NCBI GenBank assembly: GCA_038087875.1
Contig: CM075993.1
Span: forward strand, 4,962,001 to 5,026,000
Direction: 5' to 3'
Origin: Malacoraja senta
Taxonomy: Eukaryota
DNA: 64,000 bases
Below are positions 14,001 to 42,900 of the stretch, one piece after another (position 1 is the stretch's first letter; every line of letters starts with the position of its first letter). The notes beneath the pieces were generated by a model. That model did no database searches. It saw only the letters and a list, made by a program, of their open reading frames with translations, and was not told the DNA's origin. Position numbers and translations under genes: made by a program.

Positions 14001-14141
14001 CAGAACCAGTGGCAGCCTCAACTTCAGCAGCTGCGGGACATGGGGATACAGGATAACGAGCTGAGCCTTCGAGCACTGCAGGCGACCGGAGGGGACATCC
14101 AGGCTGCACTGGAACTCATTTTTGCTGGAGGAGCCCCATAG
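4944..14141 (+). CDS. UBL7: Ubiquitin-like protein 7, 3' part (8 coding exons, C-terminal UBA domain); 5' exons not seen
   Basis: join(4944-5026,6109-6193,7686-7743,8851-8984,10422-10471,12738-12905,12995-13120,14004-14141); all GT-AG, phases consistent. Translation EPVDQAAAAREFRVL..VYKMLSNKESLDQIIVATPGLSNDPIALGVLQDKDLF..GLSDDEDDF..GPRPITQSELATALALAS..QWQPQLQQLRDMGIQDNELSLRALQATGGDIQAALELIFAGGAP* matches recalled vertebrate UBL7. Confidence 0.96.
6109..6193 (+). CDS. UBL7: UBL7 internal exon (85 bp)
   Basis: ttgcag|GTTTAT...TTAG|gtgagt; VYKMLSNKESLDQIIVATPGLSNDPIAL. Confidence 0.95.
7686..7743 (+). CDS. UBL7: UBL7 internal exon (58 bp)
   Basis: actag|GTGTA...GACAC|gtaagt; GVLQDKDLFVLFTDPSLLDT. 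Confidence 0.94.
8851..8984 (+). CDS. UBL7: UBL7 internal exon (134 bp)
   Basis: tggcag|GTTAATC...CCAG|gtaaga; LITSHPALVNAMVLVLHSVTG...SSSYSEVP. Confidence 0.94.
10422..10471 (+). CDS. UBL7: UBL7 internal exon (50 bp)
   Basis: tttcag|GGGGATAC...CAGCAG|gtaagc; GGYLFDGLSDDEDDFQQ. Confidence 0.94.
10550..11374 (+). mobile_element. Internally deleted hAT-type DNA transposon in a UBL7 intron
   Basis: 13-bp perfect TIR CAGAGCTGCCAAG/CTTGGCAGCTCTG, subterminal tacgg and aatactga repeats, flanks ctttaa/ctttag. Confidence 0.7.
12738..12905 (+). CDS. UBL7: UBL7 internal exon (168 bp)
   Basis: tcacag|TCCCGG...GCGCAG|gtgtgt; SRATASSS...GPRPITQSELATALALASTPESS. Confidence 0.93.
12995..13120 (+). CDS. 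UBL7: UBL7 penultimate exon (126 bp)
   Basis: Follows an 89-bp intron with a cactaac branch point; cccag|AGCACG...CTTCAG|gtaggt; PISHDIFSQALQQALQAS. Confidence 0.93.
14004..14141 (+). CDS. UBL7: UBL7 last coding exon (UBA domain, TAG stop)
   Basis: ctgcag|AACCAGTGG...GCCCCATAG; NQWQPQLQQLRDMGIQDNELSLRALQATGGDIQAALELIFAGGAP*. Confidence 0.96.
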   Translation, partial: NQWQPQLQQLRDMGIQDNELSLRALQATGGDIQAALELIFAGGAP

Positions 14142-15236
14142 CTTGGATGGCCCATGCACATTACCACTAGAATAAAGGAGCAGAATGCTTAATGCTTAAT
14201 GCTGGCAGTGTGGCATGAATGTGGCACGAATTCTCTCCACTGTTAATTGCCAGGCATGGCAGAATGCTTAACTCCATAGACTGGTGTGTGTTATAAGGAA
14301 ATATAATTGTAGGGTGAACATCAGCACTGGTAAGTTTATAGCTCCTATGAGTATCTTGGATGTCTTTATCCAAAAGAAAAGAGCGAGAACTGATTGAATA
14401 TTTTTAAAAAATGTGCAGATGTTTTCAGTTAGACCATAGACCATATTTTATCTGTTGGAAAATGAGACAGTGCCACACTCTTGTCACAAGCTTTTATCTG
14501 GCTTTGGCACCTGGTATATTGCCATTTCTAAGCAGGCAGCATATTGTGCCAGGTGTTGGGATTTAAACATTGTTATATGCCCCAGCATCAAAGAGCCTTC
14601 CCAGCTTGGAGAACTTTTACAAGCCTTTATAACTGGGTTTAAACTAAAGTCTTGTTTCTGTTCCCCATCCCTCAATGGAATTGGCACCTTGAGTCAGCAT
14701 TTCAAATTCTGAACATCCTCCTTACTAAACTTTACCTCTGAAATGCATGGACTTTAAACTACAGTGCGGAGTATTTCTCACCCGAGAGTTTGCTTTCAGC
14801 CCTGCCCTTTTTATGTTGTCGTGCATGCTGCCAATGAAGACCTGAATCGCGATTATTTTTCTTCAACATTACTGCCTGTATTGCCATTCAGTCTGTCATG
14901 GACAATTTACATGGTTTTGCAAAAACAGCGAGCATCTTATGACGTTATGATCTTCTGAAGGGCAAGTGTGGTCTTTGCCGATTTATTTATCCACATGTTA
15001 CCAGAAAATGAATTTTCATAAACAACTAACATTTCCAGCAGCTTCTCCATAGGAGCTGGTGATGTGCTGGGTTGCATACACTTTGGTTGGATGCCTTGGC
15101 AAGTATACTTTTGCCCCTCTGCATGTGACAATTAGTCTCTAGGTCATGAAGAATTGTAACATCTAAGATTCCCAAATCGGTGAAGATAATAGGTTTGGAA
15201 CTGTTGTGTGCTATAACAAATTTAAACGCATCAAAC

Positions 15237-15242
15237 ATTAAA
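15237..15242 (+). promoter_or_regulatory. Candidate distal UBL7 polyadenylation signal (ATTAAA); proximal AATAAA at 14171-14176
   Basis: ATTAAA followed by GT/T-rich sequence (gctgtgggtgttaatctttt) at the end of a repeat-free 1.1 kb 3'UTR-like tract. Confidence 0.5.
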
Positions 15243-17142
15243 GATTTCTTTGATCATTGGGCTGTGGGTGTTAATCTTTTGACTTTCCAGTTTTTCAATG
15301 TGTTGGCTCAAAATGTGGCACGAATTCTCTCCACTGTTAATTGAATTTTATTCAGTGATGCACTTCAATGGAGTTACAGCGTCGCATGTTTTTGAGGTAG
15401 AGGTGTACAGGGAAATCAAACAAAAAATTGATGGGTGAATGGAAATGCCTGCAGCTATTGAGAGGATACTGTAGAGGTTAATTGGTGTGATTGAGGAGTG
15501 GCGTTATATACTATTGATCCAACACTCTCTTACCACCAAAATGTTGAGAGTGTCGGATAATGGTATATAACCCAATCCCTCAATCACTGGAGTCCTCCAG
15601 CACTACAGAAAATCTGCTCCAGAACAGGCAGATTTTCTGGACTGTTGGAGAAAGTTAGCAGGTCAGGCAGCATCTGTGGAGGGAATGGATGATGTTTTGG
15701 CTCGGGAGCCTTCTTCATACTCATGGAGTGGAGGGGGGGGGGGGTAAAGGTAGGGTAAAGCCTGGCATGTGATAGGTGAATACAGGTGAAGGGGAGTGGT
15801 GGATTGGTTGAATGCCAGATGGACAAAATAAATGACAAAGATTGGAGGTGAAAAGGAGATGATAGGGTATCAGATCAGAGGAGTGAAATATAAAGCTGGA
15901 GGAAGAGATGTGGGTGGAAGGGAGGTTTTTTTGCCTATGATTTAAACATCTGCAGTCTCTTGTGTAGATTTTCCAGATTATCGAATATTACTCGTACTAA
16001 AACCTTCACACAATTTGTTGCACAATTTTTTTTGGTAAACTGACAAATTTAAACAATGTGTGAGCCTTAGGCAGTTTAACGGGGAAGCAGGAAATGAGGC
16101 TGCACTTATTCAGGCGCTGAATTGTATACATTTCCAAGCAACGTGATGGAAGATTATCAGAGCATTGCTGTAAATTGGGTTCCTCCCTCAGGACCTGAGT
16201 GAGGCTGAGGTGATCTAATAATTGCTCGGCCAGGAAATTCCTTGCCCCTTCCAGAAAACTAGAACCTGACAACTGGGGAGAAATTTCAGAAAGCCCTAGT
16301 GCTTCCATTGAACAAGCAGCCAACCTGTGGGATGGACGGACTTCCAAGGTGGGAATTGTTGAGGTCAATTAATTTGAGGTTTCTTTTCCACCTCCCCTCT
16401 CCCTCCTCCAGCTTGCAATGCCAGTTGTAACGCTTGACTTCTTGCCTGGTTGAGATAGGCACAGGATTGATGCTCAAAATGATTATATCCTTGTTGGTGT
16501 AACTGAGCTCTGGAAAGGACAGTTCACTGGGACTGTGTTTATCTCACTTGGTGACACAACAGTTATGTCTGGTTTGAAGTACGGTTTTGTTCATGCCTAT
16601 TGCAACCGGTAATCATGCCCTGACCATTTGGTGCCATTTCCATTTTGCAATGATTTAGAACAGACCAAGAATGCCATATTCAGTGCCTTGGACAAGTTGT
16701 GCTGAAGGGCCTGTTTCCGTGCTGTAAGTAAGTAAGTTTATTGGCCAAGTATTCACATACAAGGAATTTGCCTTGGTGCTCCGCCCACAAGTAACAACAT
16801 GACATACAGTGACAGTTACGAATGACACAGAAAACACTAAACATTAATAATAATAAAACATTAATGATAAAACACCATTGATCAAGCATGTGATCCAACA
16901 AAATACCAGATCAAAGGGAGGCTACAGATTTTTGGTTATTGAGTAGAGCAACTACTCGTGGATAAAAAGCTGTTTTTCACGTCTGGCTGTGGCAGCTTTG
17001 ACAGTCCGGAGTCGCCTTCCAGAGGGAAGTGATTCAAAGAGTTTGTGGCCAGGGTGAGAGGGGTCAGAGATGATCTTGCCCGCTCGATTCCTGGCCCTAC
17101 AGCTCTATGCCACTATTTTTATCCTTTGGTTCAAACTTTGTC

Positions 17143-17158
17143 TTTATTCCATTTTATT
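17143..17158 (-). promoter_or_regulatory. Candidate polyA signals of alpha3-like gene (two AATAAA)
   Basis: TTTATT on + strand at 17143-17148 and 17153-17158, about 450 nt downstream of the stop. Confidence 0.55.
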
Positions 17159-17607
17159 TCTTTCATTACACGATTAATGTAACATTGTCCCAGGTTGTTT
17201 AAAGAGTAGAACTTGCAGTCCCCTTTTCCGCACTCTCCTCCCCACCACACCTTCCTTATCACTGGGTCATCTTGACTTATTTGAACCACTTTGGTCTTTG
17301 TGGCACTTGCTTTCCTGGATTCTGCACAAGTCAAATTTGCATGCATCTCTTATCAATGGGCTTTCTAACTTCAGAACAAGGCAAGCTAAGCACATGCAAC
17401 AGTAAGTGAAGCCAAAAGGAAGATGGCAATTAGTTTGCAGAAATGGCTAATTTTTCTCCACAATTGGTGAATATGCCAGTTCTTCCTTTTCTTGCTCTCT
17501 GGTCCTCCCCTGCGAACCCGCCCACCGTCTCCCAATCTTTTAACCATTTCTTGGAACAATTTTGAAAAGAACCGTCTTCTGTGTTTGCATCTTCGTTGCA
17601 ACTCTGC

Positions 17608-17736
17608 TCACATCTCGTTGGCGTGCATCAGTGGCTGCAGGAAGGAGATTGTTGTTCCCAAGATGCACGTCACGATGAAGATCCAGAGGAAGATCCGATC
17701 GATCACCAAGGCAACGTACTTCCAATCATCTTGTAC
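17608..17736 (-). CDS. CHRNA3: alpha3-like exon 6 (M4, stop)
   Basis: cttcag|GTACAA...[48 protein letters not shown]. Confidence 0.95.
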
Positions 17737-20700
17737 CTGAAGGGAAGGCCATTAAAATAAAGTTCTGAAGAGATACGACTGAAGTGTACATGTTGTAACA
17801 CAGTAAAAGACACAAAGTGCTGGAGTAACTCAGCAGGTCAGGTAGCATCTCGAGAATATAGATAGGTGACATTTCAGGTTGGGACTCGAGTGTTCTTCAA
17901 ACACTAGTGGGGCAGGTACAGTTCTATTTCCGCTGACTGGTTAGCACGGAGCAAAACCTTTTCACTACCTCGGTAAACTAAACTCTACACAGGCTAAAAA
18001 AACCTCTGCAGGTGCAGAGTAATGTTCCGTCTGCACTGTCCCATTGCACACTACCAAGCCCATGATACCATGAGTTGGCAAAGTAAAGCTCCCACTGCAG
18101 GTTATTTGGCCCCTAAATTGCCCCTTATGAGATGAGACAGTGGGATAATCTAAAACAAGTATGAATGGGTGATCAATTGTCAGGGTGGACGGGGGGGGGG
18201 GGACTGAGACTGCAGGGCCTACTTCCATGTAACTTTTCAATTCAATTCAATCATAATAGCGGAGTCAGGGGATATGGGGAGAAGACAGGAACGGGGTACT
18301 GATTGGGGATGATCAGCCATGATCACATTGAATGGCGGTGCTGGCTCGAAGGTTCGAATGGCCTACTCCTGTACCTATTGTCTGATGTCTATTGTCTATC
18401 ATTTTTTCTCAGCTGATGGAGTGTAATTAGACACAGAGTGAAGCTCCCTTTGCACAGATCCGAATTCAAACCTGACGCCTACTCTTTGTGGATCCATTCC
18501 ACAAAGCTAGAAGAACAAACGGGGAAAAAAATTGAAGGATAGTTGCAGTTTCCTCAGTGATGCCAGCTCAGTGAATTAAAGGCAGGGATTTAAGGTGGCG
18601 AGACTGCTGAAAGTGAAGTGCCATCATTCACCACCAGATGTCAGCCTGGTCCTGTGGAACTTCACCCATTGCAGAATCCATGCCTTCAGGACATTGAACA
18701 GTGGCTCGAGTAAACGACAAACAGTTCTGCATGTTCCAGTCACTCTCCACCCTCTGTGTAAAACAAAAATAACCCTACACTTCTTTAAACTTTACCTCTC
18801 AACGTTTTTTTATTTTTTTTTAATTTATTTTTTAAAAATATTTTAATTTTATTAGAAGTAAGTACAATTGTATACAATCATATTTTCATAATACCTTTTA
18901 TGTACAGCTTCTTATTTAAATTTTTTTTTGAAATAAAGAAGAAAAAGAAATAAGTTAGATAATGAAAAATAGAAAAATGTGAGATATATAGTGTGTGAAA
19001 AAGAAAAATAAAGAATGAAAAAAGAAAGTTGAGACATAGAAAATAGAAGAAAGAGAATAAAAGAAGAGAAGAGAAGAAAAGAAAATAGAAGGAGATCATT
19101 TATAATCTTGACCATCCGCAGTCACGGATTAGCTTTTACACCTGTTTTGCACCATACGTTTCCAAAAAGACGACAAATGGAGACCAACTCGTTATGAATT
19201 GGTCAAATTTATCTATTAGGAGGAATCGCATTTCCTCAAGATGTGCGGTATCCAACATACTTGCAAAAAGTTTATTTCTTTGACCAAACTTTTGGTCACG
19301 TATCCTGAGGTGATTTGGTGTCAAGTTTTGATTGCTAGCTCTTCTATGATGTTACTAGAGATCATTTTTTCTAGATTGTATCACAGAAGCACAGCTGGTA
19401 GAGCTTCTATCCCACAGCACAGGGATATGTGTTCAATCCTGACCTTAGGTGCTGTCTGTGTGGAGTTTGCACATTCTCAATGTGATCATTAGGAGTTTCC
19501 TCCGGGTGCTCCGGTTTCCTCCCATAATCCCAATGACGTGTGGGTTTGTAGGTTAATTGGCCTCTGCAAAATTGCCACTGATGTCTTGGCAGTGGGAAAG
19601 CATAGAACTAGTATGAACGGGTGATCGAAGGTCAGTGGGCCGAAGGGCCTGTTTCCATGCTGTATCTCTAAACTGTAAAGTCCATCCCAGCCCTGTGAAG
19701 GAACAATTCAGCTGGTCTCACTCCCCAATGTCCTGCAAGTTATTTACTTTTTCTAGCAGTGGACTGGTTCTCCTTTGAATGAATCTGCCACCACTACTAT
19801 CCCTAGATTGTAATGCACACTCTGCTTAAATATTACTCCTCCACCAGTGGGAAAAGTTTCTGTCTACTCTTCCTGCACTCTTGGGCCTCGGTGGAGGGAA
19901 TGGACAGACACAGGGTTTCGGATCGGGACCCTTCTTCAGGGTGGTTCTAGTGGGAGGGGAGAAAGCAGGAAAAGAAAGGGTTGGACAAAGTCTGGCAAGT
20001 GAAAGGCGGATACAGATGTTGATTCATGAATGGGTGGATGAAGTGACAAAGAAGACAAAAAGGGGAAGAGGTAGAAAAGAGGGGAAGGAATGAAATGTAA
20101 AGCCAGAGGGAGGGATGTGGGTGGAAGGGGATAGAAGATGAGTGTACAAGGAAGGGGAGATAAAAGAGAAGGTAGGGACTTGGGAATGGGAGATGAATTT
20201 GGAAGGGGAGGGAAAGGAGCAGGGTGATTGAGAGGGTGAAGATAGTTGGAGAAATACTCGCTAGAATTTAGAAGATTGAGGGGGGATCTTATAGAAACGT
20301 ACAAAATTCTTAAGGGGTTGGACAGGCTAGATGCAGGAAGATTGTTCCCGATGTTGGGGAAGTCCAGAACAAGGGGTCACGTTTGAGGATAAGGGATGAG
20401 ATTTTTTTTCACACAGAGAGTGGTAAATCTGTGGAATTCTCTGCCACAGAGGGTGGTTGAGGCCAGTTCATTGGCTATATTTAAGAGGGAGTTAGATGTG
20501 GCCCTTGTGGCTAAGGGGATCAGGGGGTATGGAGAGAAGGCAGGTACAGGATACTGAGTTGGATGATCAGCCATGATCATATTGAATGGCGGTGCAGGCT
20601 CGAAGGGCCGAATGGCCTACTCCTGCACCTATTTTCTATGTTTCTAAATGGCCGTTCACCAGGGTGGGGCTTGAGCACAGGAAGAGAGGAGGTGGGGGGT

Positions 20701-23700
20701 TATTACTTGAACCTGGAGAATTCAATGTTCATTCTTTCTCGCCTTGTACTCCATGCCTCTATTTACGGAACATTGAACGCTGAACATTAAGCTCCACGCC
20801 TCTCACCTCCTTGTATTTATCCTGCATCTTCATCTGCTCCACTATGTGTGTGATGCTGTCAGCGGCTTCTTGCACCTCTGAAGACAGGATGGAGATTGCA
20901 AGCAGAGCATCCGGGGCGTCTGCGCTGGAGCTGCGTGTTAGACCGACGCCAGCGTTCAGGAGTCTCGGCCTGCAACCTCTGCAGCACGTGCATCGTGGGT
21001 CCTGGTCGCAGGCTTGCAAGGAAGCGCTGGAGTCGGAGAGCTCATCGGGGAAGTTGGCCGCCGGGCTTCCCGGAGCTTCACCGTCGCCCCCGGGCCTCGC
21101 CATGCGCAGGATGCGTGGCAGCGACTCCAGGAAGACGGTTTTCACCCAGCTGGGCATGACGTGGGTGGCGGGACCCCTGTCGTGGATGTTGAGCACGAAG
21201 ACAGTTATAATGATGGATAGAACCACGAAGATCATGATGAAGAGCAAGTACTCCTCAATGAGAGGGATCACCAAGGAAGTGGACGGCACGCTCTCCGTGA
21301 TCCCCAGGAGAAACACCGTGAGCGATAGCAGAACCGAGACAGACAGCGTTATCTTCTCTCCACAGGCAGAGGGCAGCCAGAAAACCAGGACAGTCAGAAA
21401 CGAGATCATCAAACAAGGGATGATCATGTTGATGGTGTAGAACAGAGGCATCCGTCTGATGTAAATGGAGTAGGTTATGTCCGTGTAGATCTCTTCGCAG
21501 CAGTTGTACTTGATGTCGTGTTTGTAGCCAGGGGCAGCTATGATGGCCCACTCGCCACTCTCCCAGAAGTCCTTCATGTTCATCTCGCTGCCGATCAGGG
21601 CCAGGTCAATTTTGGCTTTGTCGTGGGTCCAGGAACCAAACTTCATGCTGCAGTTCTGGTAGTCGAACGGGAAATAGGTCACGTCCATCTTGCAGGAGCT
21701 CTTGACGATGGCCGGTGGAATCCAGGTCACCGTGCCGTTGGACATCAGCAACACTTTGGTGTTTCCATCCTTATGGTAATCAGAAACTGCACTGGAATCA
21801 CAACCCAGGTGAGTAGAATATCAGTAGCAATTCTATGGTCAGCATTGTCTGGCCTCTCCCTGGATTATAAACTATAACCATGAAAGGCAAGTATCTCATC
21901 TGCCTTCTTAATCACCCTACCAACCTGTACACTCTGGAGTTTAGAAGGATGAGAGGGGATCTTATTGAAACATATAAGATTGTTAAGGGTTTGGACACGC
22001 TAGAGGCAGGAAACATGTTCCCGATGTTGGGGGAGTCCAGAACCAGGGGCCACAGTTTAAGAATAAGGGGTAAGCCATTTAGAATAGGTTAGAATAGAAT
22101 AGCAGGCACGGGTTATTGATTGGGGACGATCAGCCATGATCACAATGAATGGCGGTGCTGGCTCGAAGGGCCGAATGGCCTCCTCCTGCACCTATTTTCT
22201 ATGTTTCTATGTAGAACGGAGATGAGGAAACACTTTTTCTCACAGAGAGTTGTGAGTCTGTGGAATTCTCTGCCTCAGTGGAGGCCAGTTCTCTGGATAC
22301 TTTCAAGAGAGAGCTAGATAGGGCTCTTAAAGATAGCAGAGTCAGGGGATATGGGGAGAAGGCAGGAACAGGGTACTGATTGGGGATGATCAGCCATGAT
22401 CACATTGAATGGCTCGAAGGGCCGAATGGCCTACTCCTGCACCTATTGTCTATTGTCTATTTCTATGGCCAAATGGAATCCGTGAGTTCTTATTGCCATC
22501 ACGGTTCCCTTATTTTTGGCCTCACCAGAAGTACTCGGATGGCCACTCAAAGTGGCAAGGTCTAGTATGGTACTTCATTTGTTGCATGTACCATTATTGT
22601 ATACAGTATAGTACATGTATCATTACACATAAGCACTTGGATGCTGTTGGCTATAAGGACCATGTAACCTAACAGTCCTCACCTTTCACCCCATCATCCG
22701 TCGCACGCAGCACATAAACCTCCGGCATTTACACCACCACCAACGGGATACCACCACTAGTCCCATCTTCCCATCTCCACCCCTTTCCGCTTTCCGCAGA
22801 GACTGTTCTCTCCTCATCCCTTTCCACCCAAACCCCCCCCCCTTCCCCAGGTACTTTCCCCTGCAACCGCAGGAGATGCAACACCTGTCCCGTTACCTCC
22901 TCCCTCGGCGGCTCGGGACCCTGACAGTCCTTACAGGTGAGGCAGAGGATCACTTGAGTCTATAAAGTTGTACAAGTAAAGTATTTCACTATTCCATTCC
23001 TGGAGTCGATCACATTAAACACTCTTCATATAACCATTACAGCACGGAAACAGGCCATCTCGGCCCTTCTAGTCCGTGCCGAACACTTACTCTCACCTAG
23101 TCCCATCTACCTGCACTCAGACCATAACCCTCCATTCCTTTCCCGTCCATATACCTATCCAATTTATTTTTAAATGATAAAATCGAACCTGCCTCCACCA
23201 CTTCCACTGGAAGCTCATTCCACACAGCTACCACTCTCTGAGTAAAGAAGTTCCCCCTCATGTTACCCCTAAACTTCTGTCCCTTAATTCTCAAATCATG
23301 TCCTCTTGTTTGAATCTTCCCTACTCTCAATGGAAAAAGCTTATCCACGTCAACTCTGTCTATCCCTCTCATAATTTTAAAGACCTCTATCAAGTCCCCC
23401 CTTAACCTTCTGTGCTCCAAAGAATACAGACCTTCACTTCACTCTTGACAATGGGATTAGGATGAATATTTTTTCTGATGAGACAGATAGTGGCCTCCTC
23501 CAATACCATAAACTTTCATGAATCTATGCTGCTGGAACTGCACATACACAAAGAGTTGGGCAGCAGTAGAGCTGCAGCCTCGCAGTGCCAGAGTCTCAAG
23601 ATCGCTCCTGACCTTGGCCACTGCCTGCGTGGAGCATGCATGTTCTCCCCGTGACCGCATGGGATTCCCCTGGGTGCTGCAGTTTCCTCCCACATCCCAA

Positions 23701-26700
23701 AGACATGTAGGTTGGTAGTTGGATCGGCTGCTGTAAATCACCCCTTGTGTCTAAGTGAGTGATATAGTATCTGTCGGGACAAGGAACTGCAGATGCTGGT
23801 TTACAAAAATAAATAAATACAAAGTGCAGGAGTAACTCAGCGGGTCAGGCAGCATCCCTGGAGAACACGGATAGGTGACGTTTTTGTTCTGTACCCTTCT
23901 TCAGAGTAATCATGGTTGGTTGATGGTCGGTGGGCCAAAGTGCCTGATCAGGCTGAAGAAGGGTCACAACCCGAAACGTCACCTATCCATGTTCTCCGAG
24001 GATGCTGCCACACCACTGGAAAGATCTGATTGAACTAGAAATGATTCACAAGAATATTGCTTGGATTAGAGGGCTGCGTGGGTTTTCTCTGAGATCTTCG
24101 GTTTCCTCCCACACTCCAAAGACGTACAGGTTTGTCGGCTTGTATTGGCTTAATTAATTGTCTGATAAATGTAAAAACTGTCCAGTATAAAATTGTCCAA
24201 CTTCAAGTATAGTTCCTGGGGACTCTACAAGGTACAGAGGGCAGTGGAGGCCAAATCACTGGATGGATTTAAGAGAGAGTTAGATAGAGCTCTAGGGGCT
24301 AGTGGTGTCAAGGGATATGGGGAGAAGGCAGGCACGGGTTATTGATTGGGGACGATCAGCCATGATCACAATGAATGGCGGTGCTGGCTGGAAGGGCCGA
24401 ATGGCCTGCTCCTGCACCTATTTTCTATGTTTCTATGTACAAGGGACAAGGGGACAAGGCAGTAGATTGTGGAATTGCAGAATGTTATGTGCGAGTACAT
24501 TTTCCACAGATTCCAGATTCAAGAGAGCTTGTTGTCATGTGTCCCTGATAGGACAATGAAATTCTTGCTTTGCTTCAACACAACATCGACTTTCCTTGAT
24601 CTTTTATGCAAGAAGCTGGATGTGTACATACAACTATCAGTACCCTGTGTGTGTGTACACATCACCACTTTGACCTTCTGACAATTGCAGACATATGTCG
24701 GCCATCAAGACTGCCTGAAAAGATAATCCGCTTACTTTGGGCGTAGCCTGCACGTGGATTGCCGACTGCACCAAAGTGAAACTTCTACCCCTGGTGCACT
24801 GAACAAGATTTAAACCCATGGCTTTTCTGACTCCAGTGGCAAGACTTCTACAACCTAATACGTCAAAATATGCCATAAAATCAATATGTATAACAGATTA
24901 GAATTGCTTATCCATGAATGGACGCCCAGTCTCATTAAATGCACAGTTCATGGAGAATAAATTATTGATTTTAATTTGAATTAATGTCCCCATAAATTTT
25001 GCATCACTCCAATCCAATCCTGGCATTATTTTTCCTGGATGGTTTAAGTCAAAATACATTTAGTGATTGAAGGAGAGAATAGACTATGGTTTGAATGCAG
25101 CAAAGGGTCTGATGGAAACAGGAAGACTGCAGATGCTGGAATTTTGAGCAAAGAACAAAGTACTGGAGGAACTCAGCGGGACAGGCAGCATCTGTGGAGG
25201 GAATGGACAAGGTTGGGAGTCTTCCTCAGACTGATGGGGTGGGGGGGGGGCTGGAAAAGAGAGGTGGAGGTGGGGCAAAACCTAGCAAGTGATAGGTGGA
25301 GACAGCTTTCTACCCATTACTCCATCAGTCTGAAGAAGGGTCCCACTCGAAGTGTTGTCTGTCCATTCCCACCACAGTTGCTGCCTGTCCCGCTGAGTTC
25401 CTCCAGTACCTTGTCCTTTGCGCGACATCATTTACGCGTCACGATGCACGACACGCGCGGCGTGACACGCACGTGACACGCGATGACATAGGCAGTGACG
25501 CGCGGCGTCGCACGATTCCGTGATGTACAAAATCTTCGCCCGCCATCTGCGTGACGCGCAAATGACGGCCAAGTGGGACAGGCCCTTAAGTGTGCGGGGA
25601 TCGCTGGTCGGCGCGGACCCGGTGAGCCGAAGGGCCTGTTTCCGCGATGTATCTCTATCTCTAAATGTGGGCAAGGATTATACGGTCCATCTGTGCCCCG
25701 TGGCGTGCTGACATTTCTTACTTGTTGTACAGGATAATGTCTGGTTTCCAGATTTTGTCGGAAGAAACTCTGATAAAGCCAACGTCTTCGTATTCCGCAG
25801 GATCCCATCTTAACTTGTAATCGTTCCAAATCTGGGACAGATGATAAAGATGAACAGACGGTAAGTTAAAGATACATTAAAGGCAAGTACAGGCTGTGGT
25901 GTGGCGTATTACTGGACTCCAACCAAACCATGACGTCCTCAGCCAAGGTGAACCCATCAGCAATTTCAGACAAAGTACTGGCTTGACACCCCATCCACCA
26001 TGTAAAAACTCACCCCCTCCACTTCTTCTCTACTGTGGCTGTAACAGTTAGCAAGGTTACTTTGATGTGACCGTTAGAAATGTAGGGTCCAATATGTGGC
26101 ATTACTCGTCCATGCCAATCAAGATGCCTCATCTAAGCTAGTTCCATTTGGCCTTGTATTGGCCTTTATAACTTATTTTTTTTATTCTGATTATTCTGAT
26201 TATATGTTAACCATAAATCTCTGTAAGGTGTCCTTGAGACCTCGGTATAAGGCACCCATAAATAAAATTCATTATTATTATTATTATTATATCCCTCTTA
26301 ACCTTTCCTATCCATGTACCTAATCAGTCTGAAGAAGGGTCTCGACCAGAAACGTCGCCAATTCCTTCTCTCCATAGATGCTGCCTCACCCGCTGAGTTT
26401 CTCCAGCATTTTGTGTCTACCTTCGATTTTACCAGCATCTGCAGTTCTTTCTTAAACTATCCATGTACCTGTGTTTAATAAGGAACTGCCGATGCTGGAA
26501 AATTGAAGGTAGACAAAGAAGGGTTTCGGCCCGAAAGGTTACCTATTTCCTTCGTTCCATAGATGCTGCCACACCTGCTGACTTTCTCCAACACTTTTGT
26601 CTACTACTCATATACCTGTCTGATTGTCTCTTAGAGGTTTTATTGTTCCATATAACCACCACCCTCTGTGTGAAAAAGTTGTCCCCCAGGTTCCTATTCA

Positions 26701-29700
26701 ATCTTTCCCTTTTCACCTTAAGCTTATGCCTAAGCCTTCACATTAAGCCTCTGCCTACCCTGGGGAACATGGATAGGTGACGTTTTGGATCAGACTTCAA
26801 TAATATATGAGAACAGAGACACAATAGATGCTGGAATCTTGAGCAAACAATAAAGTGCTGGAAGAACTCAAGGGTCTGTCCCACCTGGCCGTTATTTGCG
26901 AGTAAATGACGCGACAAATCTGAGGAAGGACATTATAGCCATAGAGGGAGTGCAGAGAAGGTTCACCAGACTGATTCCTGGGATGTCAGGACTTTCATAT
27001 GAAGAAAGACTGGATAGACTTGGCTTATACTCGCTAGAATTTAGGAGATTGAGAGGGGATCTTATAGAAACGTACAAAATTCTTATGGGGTTGGACAGGC
27101 TAGATGCAGGAAGATTGTTCCCGATGTTGGGGAAGGCCAGGACAAGGGGTCACAGCTTAAGGATAAGGGGGAAATCCTTTAAGACCGAGATGAGAAAAAC
27201 GTTTTCACACAGAGAGTGGTGAATCTCTGGAACTCTCTGCCACAGAGGGTAGTTGAGGCCAGTTCATTGGCTATATTTAAGAGGGAGTTAGATGTGGCCC
27301 TTGTGGCTAAGGGGATCAGGGGGTATGGAGAGAAGGCAGGTACGGGATACTGAGTTGGATGATCAGCCATGATCATATTGAATGGCGGTGCAGGCTCGAA
27401 GGGCCGAATGGCCTACTCCTGCACCTATTTTCTATGTATCTATGTATCATTTGCGCATCACGATGCACGATGCACGCGTGGTGACACGCAAGTGATGCGC
27501 GCATGGTGTGCATTACACGTGCATGGTGCATGGTGACATAGGCAGTGACGCGCGGTCGTGCCGCCCCAGGATTTTGGGATGTACAAAATCTTTGCGCGCC
27601 ATCTGCGTGACGCGCAAATGACGGCCAAGTGGGACAGGCCCTACAGCAAGTCAAGTAGCATCTGTGGAGGGAAATGGACAGACAACATTTAGGGTAGGGA
27701 CCCTTCCCAAGTCTGTGTTCCTCCAGCAGTTTGCTTTTTACTTCCCGCACCCAAGCGTGTTGCCCATTACTGACAATTCCCTCCAGCATTTAACTTTGCA
27801 GATTTCACTCGCTCTCATTTCTTCACCACCTCCCCAGCTGATTTTGCCCCCCGAATCCCTCCTGCCCACTGACAACATCAACCGGTCATATGACGAACAT
27901 TTGGTACAATAATTAGATATGTTAATACAAGTACCAATTAAATACTTAGCAAAGCGCCAGCTATTCACTCTCCCTCTCTCTGTCACATAAACAAACAAGT
28001 CGGTGTCGACCCACCCACTCACTCCCAACAAGGCATTCTCACATGTTTCAGCCAGAGGTTTGTCTCCATAATTTGATTGACTTCATCCTGTAACAAACCA
28101 GGCAGAAACATATTAGGGTTGTGGTCATCGGTACAGGAAAGCTTAGTAAACAAAACACAAAATCTGATCAAGAGATGTGGATGCAGCCCAGTGCATCACA
28201 CAGACCTGCCTTCCCACCTTCAGCTCCATCTAGACTTTACGCTGCCTCGGGAAGACAGGCAACATTATCAAGGACCTTTTCCACCCCGGTCATTCCCCCT
28301 TCTCCCCTCTCCTGTTGGGTAGGGATACAAATATGAAAGGCCTAGATAGAGTGGATGTGGAGAGGATGTTTCCACTAGTGGGAGAGTCTAGGACCAGAGA
28401 GGCCTCAGAAAAAAAAGATGTACCTTCAGAAAGGAGATGAGGAGGAATTTCTTTAGTCAGAGGGTGATGAATCTGTGGAATTCATTGCCGCAGAAGGTTG
28501 CGGAGGCCAAGTCAATGGATATTCTTAAGGTGGAGATTGATAGATTCTTCATTAGTACGGGTGTCAGGGGTTATGGGGAGAAGTCAGGAGAATGGGGTTA
28601 GGAGGGAGAGATAGCTCAAACATGATTGAACAGCGGAGTAGATTTGATGGGCTGAATGGCGTTCTCCCATAAGCTAGGGTGATCTTCCAACCTACCACAT
28701 TGTGGACCCTGGACTTTTACACTGTGACTGTAATGTGGGAACACTATATTCTACAGTTTGGTCGTTCTCTCTGCACTATTTATGTTGTATGCCTTAATTA
28801 TACTCATTTATAATATCATTTGACTACATAACACGCAAACAAAATATTTTCACTGTATCTCAGTATAGGCGACAATAATAAGCCGATACAAATACCAATG
28901 TGGTCACAGGCAGAACATGCAAGTTCTAATGTACAGATAATTCTAATTTTTATTGGCAAAACCAGCAGCCAATTTGCAATCAGCAACTTTCCACAAGTAG
29001 TAATGAGAACAGTTAATTGCCCTTCAAATTAATATATTGGGCAGTGGTTGAGTTCAGTGTTATGCTTGTCGCCTGATTGTACAGTACTCGTGTATAGTTT
29101 GATTTATTTTAACTGGGTAGCTCGCAAACATATCCCGTGACATAATAAATCGATAATAATTTTTTAAAAGGATAGCGGGCTGCGGCAAGGGCCCGTTACT
29201 GTACCACTTTGATGAGCTGAGACAGGGACACCTCGAAGTGCACGATGACTGGGTCGAACACATTCTCCACAGGCCGAATGCGCTCACTGTAGTTGGCGAA
29301 GAGTTTGGCGATGAGTCTTTTCTCCCCTTCGAAGGTCAGAGCACCTTTCATAGAAACAGAGAAAATAGGTGCAGGAGGAGGCCATTCGGCCCTTCGAGCC
29401 ATTCAATACGATCATGGCAGATCATCTAAAATCAGTACCCCGTTCCTGCTTTTTTTCCCCATAATCCCTTGATCCCTTTAGCCCTAAGAGATAAATCTAA
29501 CTCTCTTGAAGAGTGAATTGGCCACTGCCTTCTGTGGCAGCGAGGGGAGCAGCGATTACTTCCATTTAACCCGGTATAAACCGATACTGTGCAGGAAGAG
29601 AAAGAGATATAGAGACCCGCAGGAAATATCTCTTACGTGACTCCAACGCTGAGTAAGATCTCACAAGCATATTTATGGGCAGTGCAGTTAAGGAGTCATA

Positions 29701-30091
29701 AGTTTGTAGGAAGGAACTGCAGATGCTGCTTTACACCGAAGATAGACACAAGATGCTGGAGTAACTCAGCGGGACAGGCAGCATCTCTGGGGACAAGGAA
29801 TGGGTGACGTTTCTGAAGAAGGGTCTCGACCCGAAATGTCACCTATTCCTCTTAAGAGACGCTGCCTGTCCCACTGAGATACTCCAGCATTGATTTTGTG
29901 CCTGTTTATAGAGCCTTGTGTCATTTCTCGAAGCTCCGAACTAAACCGCAGGAGGTGGTTATTTAAAGGACAGGTTAGCACCTATCTGCCTTAGACCCGA
30001 GTGAAGATGCAGGCACATCAAGTTGGGACTAACCTCCAAGCAGCAGAAGCAGCAACCAGCCGCCCAGCGGCGACGCCCAGGATCCTCCCAT
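17608..30091 (-). CDS. CHRNA3: Neuronal nicotinic acetylcholine receptor alpha3-like subunit, divergent, 488 aa, 6 exons
   Basis: complement join(30034-30091,29205-29344,28043-28087,25722-25831,20807-21791,17608-17736) = 1467 nt, open frame, canonical 140/45/110-bp exons. Has signal peptide, Cys-loop [15 protein letters not shown], loop C YNCCEEIY and 4 TM. Closer to alpha3 than alpha6 ([37 protein letters not shown]). Orthologue versus paralogue unresolved. Confidence 0.9.
18804..19310 (-). mobile_element. L1/Tx1-like LINE 3' end with A-rich tail
   Basis: ORF end [22 protein letters not shown], pyrimidine-rich 3'UTR, AATAAA and A-rich tail on minus strand. Confidence 0.55.
20807..21791 (-). 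CDS. CHRNA3: alpha3-like exon 5 (985 bp; Cys-loop, loops B/C, M1-M3, intracellular loop)
   Basis: ttccag|TGCAGTT...AAGGAG|gtgaga; overlaps ORF 20759..21754. Confidence 0.96.
22675..22956 (+). mobile_element. Penelope-like internal fragment (RT-EN linker)
   Basis: Degenerate translation [40 protein letters not shown]. Confidence 0.65.
25420..25586. mobile_element. Same Harbinger MITE family, left end missing
   Basis: Ends gacggccaagtgggacaggccct|taa. Confidence 0.75.
25722..25831 (-). CDS. CHRNA3: alpha3-like exon 4 (110 bp)
   Basis: tcccag|ATTTGG...AACAA|gtaaga; [36 protein letters not shown]. Confidence 0.95.
26871..27642. mobile_element. Same Harbinger MITE family, interrupted by a CR1-like LINE 3' fragment (26917-27446)
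   Basis: Both TIRs present; LINE ORF remnant [31 protein letters not shown] splits gcgaca|tcattt. Confidence 0.85.
28043..28087 (-). CDS. CHRNA3: alpha3-like exon 3 (45 bp)
   Basis: ttacag|GATGAA...AAACAT|gtgaga; [15 protein letters not shown]. Confidence 0.95.
29205..29344 (-). CDS. CHRNA3: alpha3-like exon 2 (140 bp)
   Basis: gaaag|GTGCT...AAAGTG|gtacag; [47 protein letters not shown]. Confidence 0.93.
30034..30091 (-). CDS. CHRNA3: alpha3-like exon 1 (signal peptide)
   Basis: ATG at 30091; [19 protein letters not shown]+G|gttagt; phase 1 matches exon 2. Confidence 0.85.
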
Positions 30092-30127: not shown

Positions 30128-30389
30128 CGAAGCCAGCGCTGCTCCACGAGTCTGGGCTCAGAGTGAACCTCGGGCGTCAGCGACAGAGGGCGGAGCAGGT
30201 TCCCGACCGCTCCCTGCCTCTCGCTGGGACAACGCCACCCTGCCTCCCTCATAGCCAGAGACACAAGGAACCACACAAGGAACAATCCCGTCCAGAATTG
30301 TCACCTGCTCACCTCCCTCCACAGATGCTGCCTGACCCTCTGAATGTAAAATCACCAAGGGATTGGAAAGGCTAGATGCAGGAAGCTCC

Positions 30390-31122: not shown

Positions 31123-31166
<44 letters not shown>

Positions 31167-31190
31167 TTCTTTTTTTCTTTTTTCTTTTTT

Positions 31191-36803: not shown

Positions 36804-36932
36804 TCAGTGATGCTGCGTTTGGCAGAAGGGTTGCAGGAACAATCCGACCGTCCCCAAGATGCAGACTACAATAAAAATCCACAGGAACAGTCGATCCACC
36901 ACCATGGCCACATATTTCCAGTCTTCATTCAC
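36804..36932 (-). CDS. CHRNB4: CHRNB4 exon 6 (M4, stop)
   Basis: ttgcag|GTGAAT...[48 protein letters not shown]. Confidence 0.95.
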
Positions 36933-39900
36933 CTGCAAAGGGAGGGAATTTGTTGCACTTAACATGTGGTACAAAACTAAATTTCTCTTACAGGTAGTCC
37001 GTCAACATTCCACACCACAAGGACGAAGGACATTTATTGTCAAATACACCAATTGGTGGAGTGAAATTTGAGTTGCCATTTGCAGCACACCAATCAAATA
37101 AACACAACATTATAGAATTTAACATCTATCTATATACTTTTAAAACTCTCTGGCTGTCGTCCGTCTGTACGTCTGTACGTCTGTACGTCTGTACGTCTGT
37201 ACGTCTGTACGTCTGTACGTCCGTACGCCGCCTTTGATACCGCCCCTGGCCCACACAGCGCGCGGAAAGGCCCATATTTTTACCATTTCCAAAGAGATGA
37301 CATTTATCTTTACGAATAGCCACTCCTGATTAAATTCGGTCCTGTTTATGTACACGTTTTTTAATAAAATCCATCCCCCCCCCACCCCCATGTCATTTTC
37401 TCCGATTGTCTCCGATTTTCTCCGAAAACGACGCCATCTTTTTCTCCCCGATTTTCTCCGATTTTTTTCGATAAAGACGCCATCTTTTTTTCAGCAGATT
37501 TTCACCCCGGGGTCTGAAGCACGTTCGGGAACAACACCCCGGGGTGTCAAGCACTTTCGGGGACCAGACCCAACGGGTCTGCACTTGGTCTAGTTAAACA
37601 TAAAAACATCCCCCCCACAATGGTTCCCACTGTGAGGGAAGGCACCAAATGTTCAGTCCACTTCCTCCATGTTCACCCGTGGTCGGGGCCTATTGAGGCC
37701 TCCGCAGTCGCCACTACGGCGGCCCGATGTTTCAGAACCTCTCGCCGGAATGATGGAACGTGGGAAGAACGCTCCCAGCGGCTTGGAGTTTCCGAAACAG
37801 CCGCTTGCTGCCGTAGTCAAGGCCAGAAAAACGCACCATCGTCTCTGGTTCCTAGGAAGGTTTAGGAGGATCGGCATGTCCCCAGCAACCCACGGCAACT
37901 CCTACAGATGCCCCGTAGAGAAGGGTGCATTGCAGCATGCATGGTTTGGGAGCAGCACCATCCACGACGGCAGGGAATTGCAGAGATTTGTGGACGCAGC
38001 CCAGTTCATCACGCGAACCACCCTCCCTTCCATTGACTCCACCAGAATAATCAAGGACTAGTCTCATCCGAGACACTTTCTTATTTTCCCCTCTCCAGCC
38101 AGGAAAGAGGTACGGAAGTGTGAAAACGCACTGAATCCTCCAGATTCAGAAGGTAGACAAAAATGCTGGAGAAACTCAGCGGGTGAGGCAGCATCTATGG
38201 AGCGAAGGAATAGGTGACGTTTCGGGTCGAGACCCTTCTTCAGACTGATGTGGGGTTGGGGTTGGGGCGGGAGAGAAGAAAGGAAGAGGAGGAGCCGGTG
38301 GGCTGAGGGAGAGCTGAGAAGGGGAGGAGAAAGTAGGGAGTACCTGAAATTAGAGAAGTCAATGTTGATACCGCTGGGGTGTAAACCGCCCAAGCGAAAT
38401 ATGAGGTGCTGCTCCCTCCAATTTACGGTGGTCCTCACTCTGGCCATGGAGGAGGCCCAGGACAGAAAGGTCGGATTCGGAACGGGAGGGGGAGTTGAAG
38501 TGCTGAGCCACCGGGAGATCAGGTTGGTTATTGCGAACTGAGCGGAGGTGTTGGGCGAAGCGATCGCCACGCCTATGCTTGGTTGGCTCCAGATTCAGGA
38601 ACAGTTTCTTCCCAGCTGTTATCAGGCAATTGAATTGTCCTATCACCAACTGGAGAGCGGCCCTGACTTCCCATCTACCTCAGGTGGTTTAAAATTCGAC
38701 AGTTCAGAAACCTTAATATCTTTAATTGACCTTTATCTTGCACTAATCGTTGTACTCTTTATGCTCTATCTACACTGTTGACGGCTTGATTGTATTCAAT
38801 AGACAATAGGTGCCGGAGTAGGCCATTCGGCCCATCGAGCCATCACATACAGTCTTTGTGTTTACTGAATGGAATGCAACAAAAAAGCTTTTCACGTGGC
38901 AATAATAAACTAAACCAATCTAAGCTAAAGATTCCTGGCTGAATTGGTGACGGAGTCTCCATCCATCACTGTGAAAGATACCTGATCCACCACCAATTAT
39001 CCTAAATCAGCATTGGCTGAAAGTAAAGGAGTTGAAAGATGATTGTCGCTCCCTGAGTCAGCCGAGCTTGGGCAGGCAGAGAGAGACAGACAGTAGTAAT
39101 AGGCCATTCGGCCCATCGAGTCTGTGCAGATCATCCCGCACCTAGTTCGACTGCTCCTACACGAATCTCCTTGTGTCCTCCCTCACACTCCCATCAACTC
39201 TCCTCAGATTCTACCACCCACCAGCAATTTCCAGCACCCAATTAATCTGCCGCACATTTTCGGGACGTGGGAGGACCCCTGAAATACTCACCCTGTCACA
39301 GGGAGGGCGTGCAAACTCCACAACAGACAGCACCCGGGTAGGGGGAGGGGGGTGGTCAGGATTGCACTGGGTCTCTGGAGCTGTTAGGCAGCAGCGTTAC
39401 CAGCCGTGCCACCGTATCCTGCTCCCATCCACTCTGCTGTCTACATTCTTAGGGCACCCTCTGTGTTTCCCAAAACCCTCTATCATTTCGGAGCAACTTT
39501 TCCTTCTTGTTTTGTGCTGTATGGGAATTAATTTATTTGGCTGGGGGGGCATTTGAGCCCAGTCTTTCTCTCTCCCCCTCTCTTTCTCTCTCCCCCTCTC
39601 TTTCTCTCTCCCTCTCTCCTTGCCTCTCTTTCTCTATCCCTCTCTCTCTCTCTTCTCCCTCCAATTCCTCCTCCCCCTCTCTCTCTCTTGCTCTCTCTTG
39701 CTATCAGACAACTGAATGATCCTGTCACAACCAGAGAACAGTTCCGCTACGGACATTCTCCGAGTTCGAATCAGGGGAAAACTCGGGAGAACTCTTGAAT
39801 TACCTCGTACAGTGGGACAGGCCCTTTACCTTGCACTAAATATTATTCTCTTATCTTGCATCTATACACTGTAAATGGCTCGATTGTAATCATGTATTGT

Positions 39901-42900
39901 CTTTCCGCTGACTGGATAGCACGCAACAAAAGCTTTTCACTGTACCTCGGTACCCGTGACAATAAACTAAACTGAGGAGCAGAATTAGGACATTCAGCCT
40001 ATCAAGTCTACTCTGCCATTCAATCATTTCCCTCTCAACCCCATTTCCCTGCCTTCTCCACGTAACATAGAAACATAGAAACATAGAAACATGTTAGTCG
40101 TAGGTAATCGAGGGTAGTCGAAGGTAGTTGTAGATAGTCTTCAACATAGTCAATAGAAAATAGGTGCAGGAGTAGGCCATTCGGCCCTTCGAGCCTGCAC
40201 CGCCATTCAATATGATCATGGCTGATCATCCAACTCAGTATCCCGTACCTGCCTTCTCTCCATACCCCCTGATCCCTTTAGCCACAAGGGCCACATCTAA
40301 CTCCCTCTTAAATATAGCCAATGAACTGGCCTCGACTACCTTCTGTGGCAGAGAATTCCACAGATTCACCACTCTCTGTGTGAAAAATGATTTTCTCATC
40401 TCGGTCCTAAAAGATTTCCCCCTTATCCTTAAACTGTGTGACCCCTTGTTCTGGACTTCCCCAACATCGGGAACAATCTTCCTGCATCTAGCCTGTCCAA
40501 CCCCTTAAGAATCTTGTAAGTTTCTATAACCCCTGACACTCTTACTAACCAAGAATCTTTCAATCTCCGCCTTAAAAAATATCCATTGACTTGGCCTCCG
40601 CAGCCGCCTGTTGCTAACATAATGCAAGTCTAGATATGTTGTGAAGAAGCCACACTTACACTCTGATTCTCATCGTCATTTTTCACGTGGTCTGCAATGA
40701 ACTTGATCCCGTCAATGGCTTCCTGGAGCTCCAGGGAGTGTCTTGTGGAAGATCTCAACCTCACATCCTGATGACAACCAAAGCCATCGGGCGCATCGAT
40801 CACATTCAGGTCGTAGACTTTGGCCGATGTTGGGTTCATGAAGAAGGCCGAGTTTTTGTTCCTCTCCGCCGCGCTCAAGTGAGCGCTGCAGCAATCGCCC
40901 TTCTTGTGCTGGGACGACTCTTGCGCGCTGCCGTTGCTTCGAGGCCTTTTGATGAAGAGCAGGGCCGGCAGCCTCTCCAGGAAAACCACCTTCACCCACT
41001 GGGGCATGGTGTGTGTGGTTGGGGCACGGTGGTGGATGTTCAGGACGCAGACACTGGTCACGATGGAGAACGTCACCAGGACCATGGTGAACATCAGGTA
41101 CTTCCCAATCAGTGGAACATCTAGAGAGGTTGGTGGGACGATCTTGGAGATGAGCAACAAGAACACAGTGAGGGCCAGTAAAACAGAGATACACAGAGTC
41201 ATCTTTTCGCCACAGTCTGATGGTAGATAGAAGACCAGAATAGCCAGTGAGGTTATGAGGATGCATGGTATTATCAGGTTGATGGTATAGAAGAGGGGCT
41301 TCCTCCTAATGATAAAGTCATAGGTAACGTCAACGTAAGCTGGGTCCTTTGGGTTTGTGTTCCTTCTCCCTGGAAGTGACAGGATGTCCCACTCCCCACT
41401 CGGGGTGAAGTCATCCATGCTCGCACTCTCCGATTTGGGGATCATGTCGATCTCCATGTGGTCGTAGGTCCACGACCTGAACTTCATGGTGCAGTTCTGC
41501 TGGTCGAAGGGAAAATGCTTCACCTCGATCTTGCAGGCACTCCTGTAGATGGCAGGTGGCAGCCAGTAGATGCTTCCGTTGCACCAGATGATGGCATTGG
41601 TGTACAGGGAGACTTCATAGGTCCCATCAGCGCTGAAGAGAGAGAGAGAGAAAGGATCACAGCGATGAACATAGCAGCGATAGTGGGGGGAATAGAGTCA
41701 TCGAGTCATCGAGTACGGCCCATCTCATTCACGCTGACCAAGAAGCCCGTCTAATTCCTTGGGGCGCAGGAGGATGAAGGGTGACCTTATAGAAGTGCAC
41801 AAAATCATGAGAGGAATAGATTGTGTAAAAGTCTCTTTCCCAGAATGGGGGAATCGAGAACCAGAGGACTTAGGTTTGAAGTGGAGGGGGATGGATTTAG
41901 TAGGAAGCTGAGGGGTAGCTTTGGTACACAGAGGCCGGTGGGTGTATGGAACGAGCCGCCGGTGGAGGTAGTTGGGGAAGGTACTATCTAAACATTTCAG
42001 AAACATTTAGACTCTCTGCCTCAGAGGGCGGTGGAGGCAGGTTCTCTGGATGCTTTCAAGAGAGAGCTAGATAGGGCTCTTAAAATAGTGGAGTCAGGGG
42101 ATATGGGGAGAAGGCAGGAACGGGGTACTGATTGGGGATGATCAGCCATGATCATATTGAATGGCGGTGCTGGCTCGAAGGGCCGAATGGCCTGCTCCTG
42201 CACCTATTGACAGGTTCACGGATAGGATGTGTTTGGAGGAATATTGACCAAACGCAAGTAGGTGGGACTTGTGTAGAAGGGACATCTTAGTTGGTGCGGG
42301 CAAGTTGGGCTGAAGGGCCTGTTTAAATGCTGTGTGACTCTATGTCTAAGCTAGTCCCATTTGCCCATGTTTGGCCCATATCCCTCTAAACCTTTCCTAT
42401 CCAAGCGTCTTTTAAATAGTTATTGTACCAGCCTCAACTATCTCCTCTGGCAACTTGTTCCATACACCATCTGTGAAAATGTTGTCCCTCAGGTTCCTAT
42501 GAAATCTTTCCACTCTCACCTTAGAATCTTTATTTGAAGCAGATAACAGAAAGAACCCATCAATAGATGTTCCTCGGGCTATTCTCTAATAGAGACTTCA
42601 AATGGTTTAGTTTACGAAAGAACTGCAGATGCTGGAAAAATCGAAGGTAGACAAAAATGCTGGAGAAACTCAACAGGTGGGGCAGCATCTATGGAGCGAA
42701 GGAATAGGTGACGTTTCAGGTCGAGACCCTTCTTCAGACTAATGGAGGGTCTCAATCTGAAACGTTGCCCATTCCTTGTCTCTGGAGATGCTGCCTGACC
42801 CGCTGAGTTACTCCAGCATTTTGTGTCTATCTTCGGTGTAAAGCAGCATCTGCAGTTCCTTCCAACACCAAGACGTTGGACTTACTTGTTGTACAGTACG

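Follow-up and report, generated by a model that had tools for sequence, protein, structure and literature searches.

A diverged but intact CHRNA3 orthologue in the skate Malacoraja senta shares most of its core substitutions with other sharks and rays

The stretch analysed here, referred to as the window, comprises 64,000 nucleotides (nt) of the skate Malacoraja senta (assembly GCA_038087875.1, contig CM075993.1; C17:4,962,001-5,026,000) and carries CHRNA3, the gene for the alpha3 subunit of neuronal nicotinic acetylcholine receptors, beside CHRNB4, the gene for beta4. The encoded alpha3 is strongly diverged, particularly in its channel domain, and most of its differences from bony-vertebrate alpha3 recur in other elasmobranchs. 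CHRNA3 is built from six minus-strand exons running from 30091 to 17608, which join to 1467 nt encoding 488 amino acids and one stop codon; the frame is open and all five introns are GT-AG. The exons are as follows:

30034..30091, minus strand: exon 1, with start codon and signal peptide; aligns with the N-terminus of the Rhinoraja alpha3-like protein P0003
29205..29344, minus strand: exon 2, with AG/GT flanks; tblastn
28043..28087, minus strand: exon 3, 45 nt; splice model and tblastn
25722..25831, minus strand: exon 4, 110 nt, carrying loop A; splice model
20807..21791, minus strand: exon 5, 985 nt, with the Cys-loop, loops B and C, M1-M3 and the intracellular loop
17608..17736, minus strand: exon 6, with M4 and the stop codon

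In the predicted protein the Cys-loop spans residues 151-165, and Tyr116 of loop A, Trp173 of loop B and loop C with its cysteine pair are all retained. Like nicotinic alpha subunits of the alpha2-6 type, the protein thus has a Cys-loop, vicinal cysteines in loop C and aromatic residues in each of the three binding loops; the gene also has the long exon 5 reaching from the Cys-loop to the intracellular loop, which passages of PMC6354393 give as a feature of such genes. Among solved structures the best match was alpha3 (6PV7, expectation value (E) 2e-127), followed by alpha6. Broken frames or splice sites, as expected of a pseudogene, were not observed, and the GC content at third codon positions (GC3) was 0.76 compared with 0.72 for beta4. 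An earlier sequence-only reading of the locus was therefore confirmed for the complete frame, the introns, the Cys-loop and the binding loops; the new tissue or ligand role that it had offered as one option finds no support in these predicted, intact loops. A structure prediction of exon 5 from a 31-row alignment yielded a pLDDT (predicted local distance difference test) of 40.3 and a pTM (predicted template modelling score) of 0.19 and was not used.

Across M1-M3 the window alpha3 was identical to five bony-vertebrate alpha3 proteins at 73-74 of 87 residues, whereas the window beta4 matched five bony-vertebrate beta4 proteins at 85-86 of 87. Sites constrained among 47 amniote rows (194 for alpha3 and 182 for beta4) were compared as well. 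At the alpha3 sites the window differed 31 times, 14 other elasmobranchs 18-39 times, a lungfish 11 times, four alpha6 proteins 12-19 times and five held-out teleosts only 5-6 times, these teleost rows being drawn from the best-hit list and possibly slow-evolving ones. At the beta4 sites the corresponding counts were 12 for the window, 7-13 for other elasmobranchs and 3-4 for teleosts. The asymmetry between the two neighbouring genes, which had been noticed before, thus stands, and the alpha3 excess is larger than chance would give.

To see which species share the substitutions, 9 batoid, 13 shark and 93 bony-vertebrate alpha3 rows were compared together with 13 alpha6 rows; duplicate isoform or partial rows of Mustelus, Rhincodon, Stegostoma, Hemitrygon, Chiloscyllium and Scyliorhinus were left out. 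The core of the window protein departs from the bony-vertebrate majority at 70 positions, of which 39 are also changed in sharks, 12 in other batoids only and 12 in skates only, so that 63 of the 70 recur in other sharks or rays and seven are private, three of them adjacent to each other. The sites of most interest are:

21377..21379, minus strand: Tyr>Trp at the end of M1 (residue 256), in 9/9 batoids and 0/13 sharks
21365..21367, minus strand: Asp>Ala at -4' (residue 260), in 4/4 skates and no other batoid
21356..21358, minus strand: Glu at -1' (residue 263), kept here; Ala or Gln in 5/21 other elasmobranch rows of three lineages
21302..21304, minus strand: Val>Gly at M2 17' (residue 281), in 9/9 batoids and 0/13 sharks
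21254..21256, minus strand: Gly>Glu at the start of M3 (residue 297), in 7/9 batoids and 0/13 sharks
21763..21784, minus strand: variable stretch after loop A (residues 121-128), with three skate-shared and three private changes

The codons singled out earlier were found in place (His 21625-21623, Ala(-4') 21367-21365, Gly(17') 21304-21302 and Glu 21256-21254), and because species assembled separately carry them too, errors at these key codons are unlikely. The substitutions that had been listed as oddities of this gene are therefore present, but not all are its own: the loop-B His is found in 8/8 other batoids and 12/13 sharks, and the M4 change is likewise shared with sharks. Similarly, the NGT sequon had been called new, yet 6 of the 11 further alpha3 rows examined have a sequon there, among them those of Heptranchias, Cetorhinus and lungfish. 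The Glu at the start of M3 is lacking in Amblyraja and Leucoraja. Sites diagnostic for batoids numbered 13 in alpha3 versus 2 in beta4, and eight of the 13 fall in M1-M3, a part covering 87 of the 308 columns (post hoc binomial test, p 0.012), where they are held in 7-9 of 9 batoids.

The divergence had been attributed to a fast-evolving paralogue or to relaxed selection on the gene. Four protein searches of the genome returned 11, 15, 29 and 42 matches (35, 25, 37 and 53 candidates, each of them scored); the sole exon 5 of alpha3 type among them was that of the window, and no second, conserved alpha3 copy was found. Nor was a second conserved elasmobranch alpha3 present among the best 120 database hits, where such a copy should outrank mammals; an extra Pristiophorus row that could have been one was rejected, as the tree placed it in alpha6. 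The nearest database proteins were skate 'alpha-3-like' entries (Amblyraja 91%, Rhinoraja 89%), followed by other rays (73-77%) and then sharks. CHRNA3 adjoins CHRNB4 on the same strand, as expected of the orthologue:

36804..44210, minus strand: exons 2-6 of CHRNB4, upstream of CHRNA3; exon 1 was not located

The window beta gene grouped with beta4 in both search and tree, and alpha3-like and beta4-like records were consistent with a shared contig in 13 of 14 matched elasmobranch species, Pristiophorus being without contig data. For bony vertebrates, supplement 2 of PMC6354393 gives the same order of CHRNA3 and CHRNB4, with CHRNA5 facing CHRNA3. The closest paralogue, CHRNA6, is a separate gene on another contig (C1:190.83 Mb), and its protein clusters with the alpha6 of sharks and chimaera (100/100). 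It lies in a block of beta5, alpha6 and beta3 at 190.7-190.9 Mb of C1, identified from translations and trees, an arrangement that PMC6354393, in the part available, describes for other vertebrates. A purine/pyrimidine simple-repeat tract (30376-31990) lies between alpha3 and beta4 just upstream of the alpha3 start, and a scaffold gap of 200 N (30702-30901) is located inside it.

In a maximum-likelihood (ML) tree of 38 rows the window protein was nested successively within skates, batoids and elasmobranchs (100/97, 100/100, 100/100, 100/99). The elasmobranch clade as a whole joined alpha6 (98/95) and not bony-vertebrate alpha3, in a tree whose outgroups were of half length, long-branched and without chimaera alpha3. 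Because of this placement, orthology was argued from gene order and from the fact that alpha6 is found elsewhere. Taken together, only one alpha3-type gene was found in this genome and a fast-evolving paralogue is not supported, also because the tip of the window gene is not longer than that of beta4. That the gene might be the only orthologue, with its substitutions shared by all sharks and rays, had been foreseen; the former holds and the latter does so in part. Chimaera and Pristis alpha3 were absent among the 120 best hits. For Pristis pectinata the database does hold a beta4-like protein, and a batoid alpha3 should rank high among these hits.

Branch lengths were then estimated for matched alpha3 and beta4 cores on a fixed tree of 19 species, with 70 bootstrap replicates per gene and nine branch classes. 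Alpha3 was the longer on the batoid stem (0.109 [0.060-0.146] versus 0.032 [0.009-0.068] for beta4, bootstrap share 0.013) and on the skate stem (0.054 versus 0.025, share 0.093). The window tip was of ordinary length (0.025 [0.009-0.050] versus 0.015 [0.000-0.043], share 0.249). Within skates (0.133 versus 0.154), in the stingray and manta crown (0.020 versus 0.040) and in carpet sharks (0.016 versus 0.031), alpha3 was the shorter of the two; long alpha3 tips were seen in Narcine, Scyliorhinus and Pristiophorus, and different lineages had changed at different sites. In Tajima relative-rate tests the window was faster than Heptranchias (p 0.0001, 0.0005) and partly than Rhincodon (0.053, 0.0095). 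Among skates, 20-22 of the 308 core sites of alpha3 differed, compared with 15-22 of the 102 sites of the intracellular loop, so purifying selection appears to persist. As judged from these sequences, the alpha3 pattern is one of a burst followed by conservation, set upon a looser alpha3 across elasmobranchs. The signal is placed on the batoid stem because this stem is longer than that of beta4, because 13 versus 2 diagnostic sites mark it and because conservation followed in stingrays and mantas. The divergence noticed earlier is real and concentrated in the channel domain, but most of it arose on the batoid stem and, before that, in the history of elasmobranchs.

The residues of the intracellular charge rings differ among elasmobranchs. 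The -1' Glu, retained in the window, was lost three times among other elasmobranchs, being Ala in Amblyraja, Leucoraja and Pristiophorus and Gln in two Scyliorhinus (P0002, P0242, P0009, P0098, P0267), and it is retained in all 103 non-chondrichthyan rows tallied from the 120 best hits. The -4' position is changed in skates and in Heptranchias. According to passages of PMC12646802 the -1' ring is tied to rectification and calcium permeability, and PMC4245820, in the part available, names 17' and -1' as determinants of calcium permeability. The latter source further reports that Asp(-4')>Ala makes alpha9alpha10 more permeable to calcium and, in the same passages, describes Ala at -4' as unique to mammalian alpha9, to which skate alpha3, going by its predicted protein, is a counter-example. 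As side observations, Amblyraja, Leucoraja and Pristiophorus carry the same Cys>Ser two residues before the -1' site, 17 beta rows (all frogs where named) have Gln at -1', and the beta4 of Mobula birostris (P0129) has Ala at -4'.

CHRNA5, which would be expected tail to tail with CHRNA3, was not found there; UBL7 occupies the position instead:

14010..14141, plus strand: last coding exon of UBL7, tail to tail with CHRNA3 (E 1.8e-21 to UBL7, 2cwb)
14142..17607, no strand: stop-to-stop interval of about 3.5 kilobases (kb) between UBL7 and CHRNA3, the bony-vertebrate place of CHRNA5, with no gap and no alpha5 match

In the 164 kb around the window four alpha5 queries matched only alpha3 and beta4 (E up to 0.5), and genome-wide a chimaera alpha5 query found no alpha5, its best match being beta3. 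The usual order of the neighbouring genes is IREB2-HYKK-PSMA4-CHRNA5. On C17 a block that we take, from its motifs, to represent IREB2, HYKK-like and PSMA4-like genes lies about 4.6 Mb from CHRNA3, with an aconitase-family gene at C17:9.71-9.72 Mb followed by the HYKK-like and PSMA4-like genes. No alpha5 match was obtained in the 116 kb beyond the PSMA4-like gene, a region with a scaffold gap of unknown size (C17:9,602,982-9,603,181) about 23 kb past that gene. A weak alpha5-like match at C17:9,605,510 was rejected because its strand is wrong and because its 21 bases are found in 12 places, spread over 7 contigs. In the protein database no shark or ray alpha5 was present among the best 120 of 2491 hits to chimaera alpha5, where only cluster representatives are listed and a fast-evolving alpha5 could rank lower. 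These 120 comprised proteins of chimaera, tetrapods, coelacanth, gar and teleosts, the lowest identity being 77%, and four unnamed rows among them were nearest to mammal or teleost alpha5 (90-97%); yet alpha3 and beta4 from at least 14 elasmobranchs are present in the same database. Loss of CHRNA5 is accordingly likely in this skate and probable in all elasmobranchs, in an assembly from which beta2 is also missing. A beta2-type exon 5 was not found genome-wide (only beta4 and beta5), a search that tested beta2 indirectly, since the 'beta-2' query P0211 is itself beta5, and supplement 2 of PMC6354393 lists, in the part available, no chimaera CHRNB2. Its absence reflects either a chondrichthyan loss or a small chromosome left unassembled; if beta2 was lost, all neuronal alpha subunits would depend on beta4 and beta5, a possible reason for the conservation of beta4.

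On balance, and with slightly better than even confidence, we read the window gene as a single intact CHRNA3 orthologue that probably encodes a working alpha3beta4 subunit, with gating or calcium flux likely retuned by transmembrane changes of the batoid ancestor. Alpha3 and beta4 form a textbook pair, and alpha3 supplies loops A-C at the alpha3/beta4 interfaces, so acetylcholine is presumably still the agonist. The subunit would assemble with beta4 as an acetylcholine-gated cation channel, in pentamers without the alpha5 accessory subunit; for CHRNA3 orthologues such channels are expected in autonomic and central neurons. Here 17' Gly, 22' Val, the Glu at the start of M3 and the Trp at the end of M1 may alter helix packing at the upper pore, which in turn would shift gating, desensitisation or calcium flux. 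More speculatively, the loss of alpha5 might have freed transmembrane interfaces of alpha3, and beta4, being needed by other alpha subunits as well, might have been held unchanged. The expected sites of expression are enteric neurons and lateral-line efferents, since reporters of zebrafish chrna3 and chrnb4 mark such cells in the part of PMC11650009 available.

Several results weigh against this interpretation. Only the batoid stem, out of nine branch classes, has a bootstrap share below 0.05, which is borderline after multiple testing, and the total elasmobranch tree is not clearly larger for alpha3 (0.918 versus 0.670 for beta4, share 0.087). The window evolves no faster than Scyliorhinus torazame (Tajima p 0.56, 0.89), sharks too are eroded at 9-20% of the constrained alpha3 sites, fitting a clade-wide relaxation, and the ML tree does not unite the elasmobranch clade with bony-vertebrate alpha3. 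The loss of the -4' Asp, noticed earlier, is weak evidence for changed calcium flux, because passages of PMC4245820 (Lipovsek 2014, citing Haghighi and Cooper 2000) report Asp(-4')>Ala to be without effect on the calcium permeability of alpha3beta4. Finally, seven Logan proteins fall in the skate beta4 cluster and none in two skate alpha3 clusters, a weak hint at low or narrow alpha3 expression. One sequencing run contained the complete exon and no RNA run was listed with it, which speaks neither way.

The main rival, a serious possibility that we nevertheless hold at well below even, is relaxed constraint, in which elasmobranch alpha3 is used under weaker purifying selection and its changes are tolerated drift of little functional effect. 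It would account for all 14 elasmobranch rows exceeding most alpha6 paralogues at the constrained sites, for the sites hit varying between lineages, of which Narcine, Scyliorhinus and Pristiophorus have long tips, and for the M3-start Glu not being strictly kept. It is less easily reconciled with alpha3 being slower than beta4 in crown stingrays and mantas and in carpet sharks, with unchanged binding loops, and with eight diagnostic changes being kept across batoids in what is normally the most conserved part of the protein. A stronger, adaptive version of the favoured reading, in which sharks and rays lost CHRNA5, broke up the alpha5-alpha3-beta4 cluster and then rebuilt the alpha3 channel through a batoid-stem burst and repeated charge-ring changes, with altered calcium permeability and rectification of ganglionic receptors, is tentative and somewhat doubtful. 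An alpha3/alpha6 mosaic produced by old gene conversion is improbable: the joining of elasmobranch alpha3 to alpha6 in the tree and some residues matching alpha6 rather than amniote alpha3 would fit it, but the two genes lie on different contigs, the batoid-diagnostic channel residues are absent from three aligned chondrichthyan alpha6 rows, and the shared residues may be ancestral. Very improbable is an incipient pseudogene or a set of assembly errors, even if the seven private core changes, including the adjacent three, are known from the assembly sequence alone and a nearby PSMA4-like gene with an apparent frame shift points to local errors in assembly or gene; the open frame, canonical splice sites, ordinary terminal branch, beta4-like GC3 and recurrence of most differences in independently assembled species all argue otherwise. 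Least probable of all, and largely refuted, is a duplicated, neofunctionalised alpha3 paralogue whose conserved counterpart lies elsewhere. It would suit the strong divergence from alpha3 of bony vertebrates, and the assembly, in which beta2 was not found either, may be incomplete; against this, no second copy appeared in the four genome searches or among the 120 best database hits, the gene keeps its place beside beta4, and no long terminal branch is seen.

Compared with the vertebrate CHRNA5-CHRNA3-CHRNB4 cluster and its ganglionic alpha3beta4 receptor (6PV7), the skate gene has the same long exon 5, cysteine pair, aromatic loops and position downstream of CHRNB4 on the same strand, but 13-14 of 87 M1-M3 residues differ and the downstream neighbour is UBL7, not CHRNA5. 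The annotated 'alpha-3-like' proteins of Amblyraja, Leucoraja, Rhinoraja, Mobula, Hypanus, Hemitrygon, Narcine and sharks are direct orthologues (64-91% over exon 5), from which the window is distinguished by its private changes and, in the case of Amblyraja and Leucoraja, by the retained -1' Glu. CHRNA6 of the CHRNB5-CHRNA6-CHRNB3 cluster reaches 82% over a 208-residue core query. Mammalian alpha9alpha10 offers a parallel in its clade-specific substitutions including Asp(-4')>Ala (passages of PMC4245820 and PMC7086180); there the functional shift was measured, whereas here a neuronal heteromeric subunit is known by sequence, from a class described as conserved. Passages of PMC7086180 and PMC11650009 speak of high conservation for neuronal nicotinic subunits and of an alpha5-alpha3-beta4 cluster preserved across vertebrates. 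The sample of PMC6354393, in the part available, includes one chimaera and no shark or ray, sharks are unmentioned in the start of the abstract and the passages of PMC7086180, and nicotinic genes are unmentioned in the main text of PMC11979771 as available. Among the matches listed, no literature on elasmobranch alpha3 divergence or alpha5 loss turned up, nor any work on the function or evolution of the annotated elasmobranch proteins, most subscription journals lying outside coverage; the gene and its orthologues are already annotated, and the clade-level pattern appears undescribed in the searchable literature. For this single genome alone the gene is ordinary. If the favoured interpretation is true, this conservation would have an exception on the scale of an entire vertebrate group, one whose alpha3 channel domain is remodelled and which apparently lacks alpha5. 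It would offer natural variants at 17', -1' and -4' for tests of gating, rectification and calcium flux, together with a ganglionic receptor that is naturally free of alpha5. If adaptive rebuilding were true, functional divergence, so far shown mainly for hair-cell alpha9alpha10, would extend to neuronal nicotinic receptors.

Further observations were made on other genes. Skate beta3 (C1:190.95 Mb, L007) has a long branch of 0.49 with changes at normally conserved M1 and M3 sites, and the branch of skate alpha6 (L002) is longer than that of shark alpha6. The four protein searches gave no alpha7-type match on C17, and chimaera CHRNA7 sits on the alpha3 scaffold; the only clear alpha7/8-type match lies on C1 beside beta3 and is alpha8 by position. 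Beyond the PSMA4-like gene at least three extra HYKK-like copies were found on both strands (C17:9.54-9.57 Mb, L036-L038), and the PSMA4-like exon at C17:9,628,718-9,629,141 (L030) appears to change frame midway, probably through an assembly indel. At C2:73.95-73.98 Mb (L015-L019) five tandem, near-identical and intron-poor proteasome alpha-type copies are spaced about 8 kb apart, each with an internal stop.

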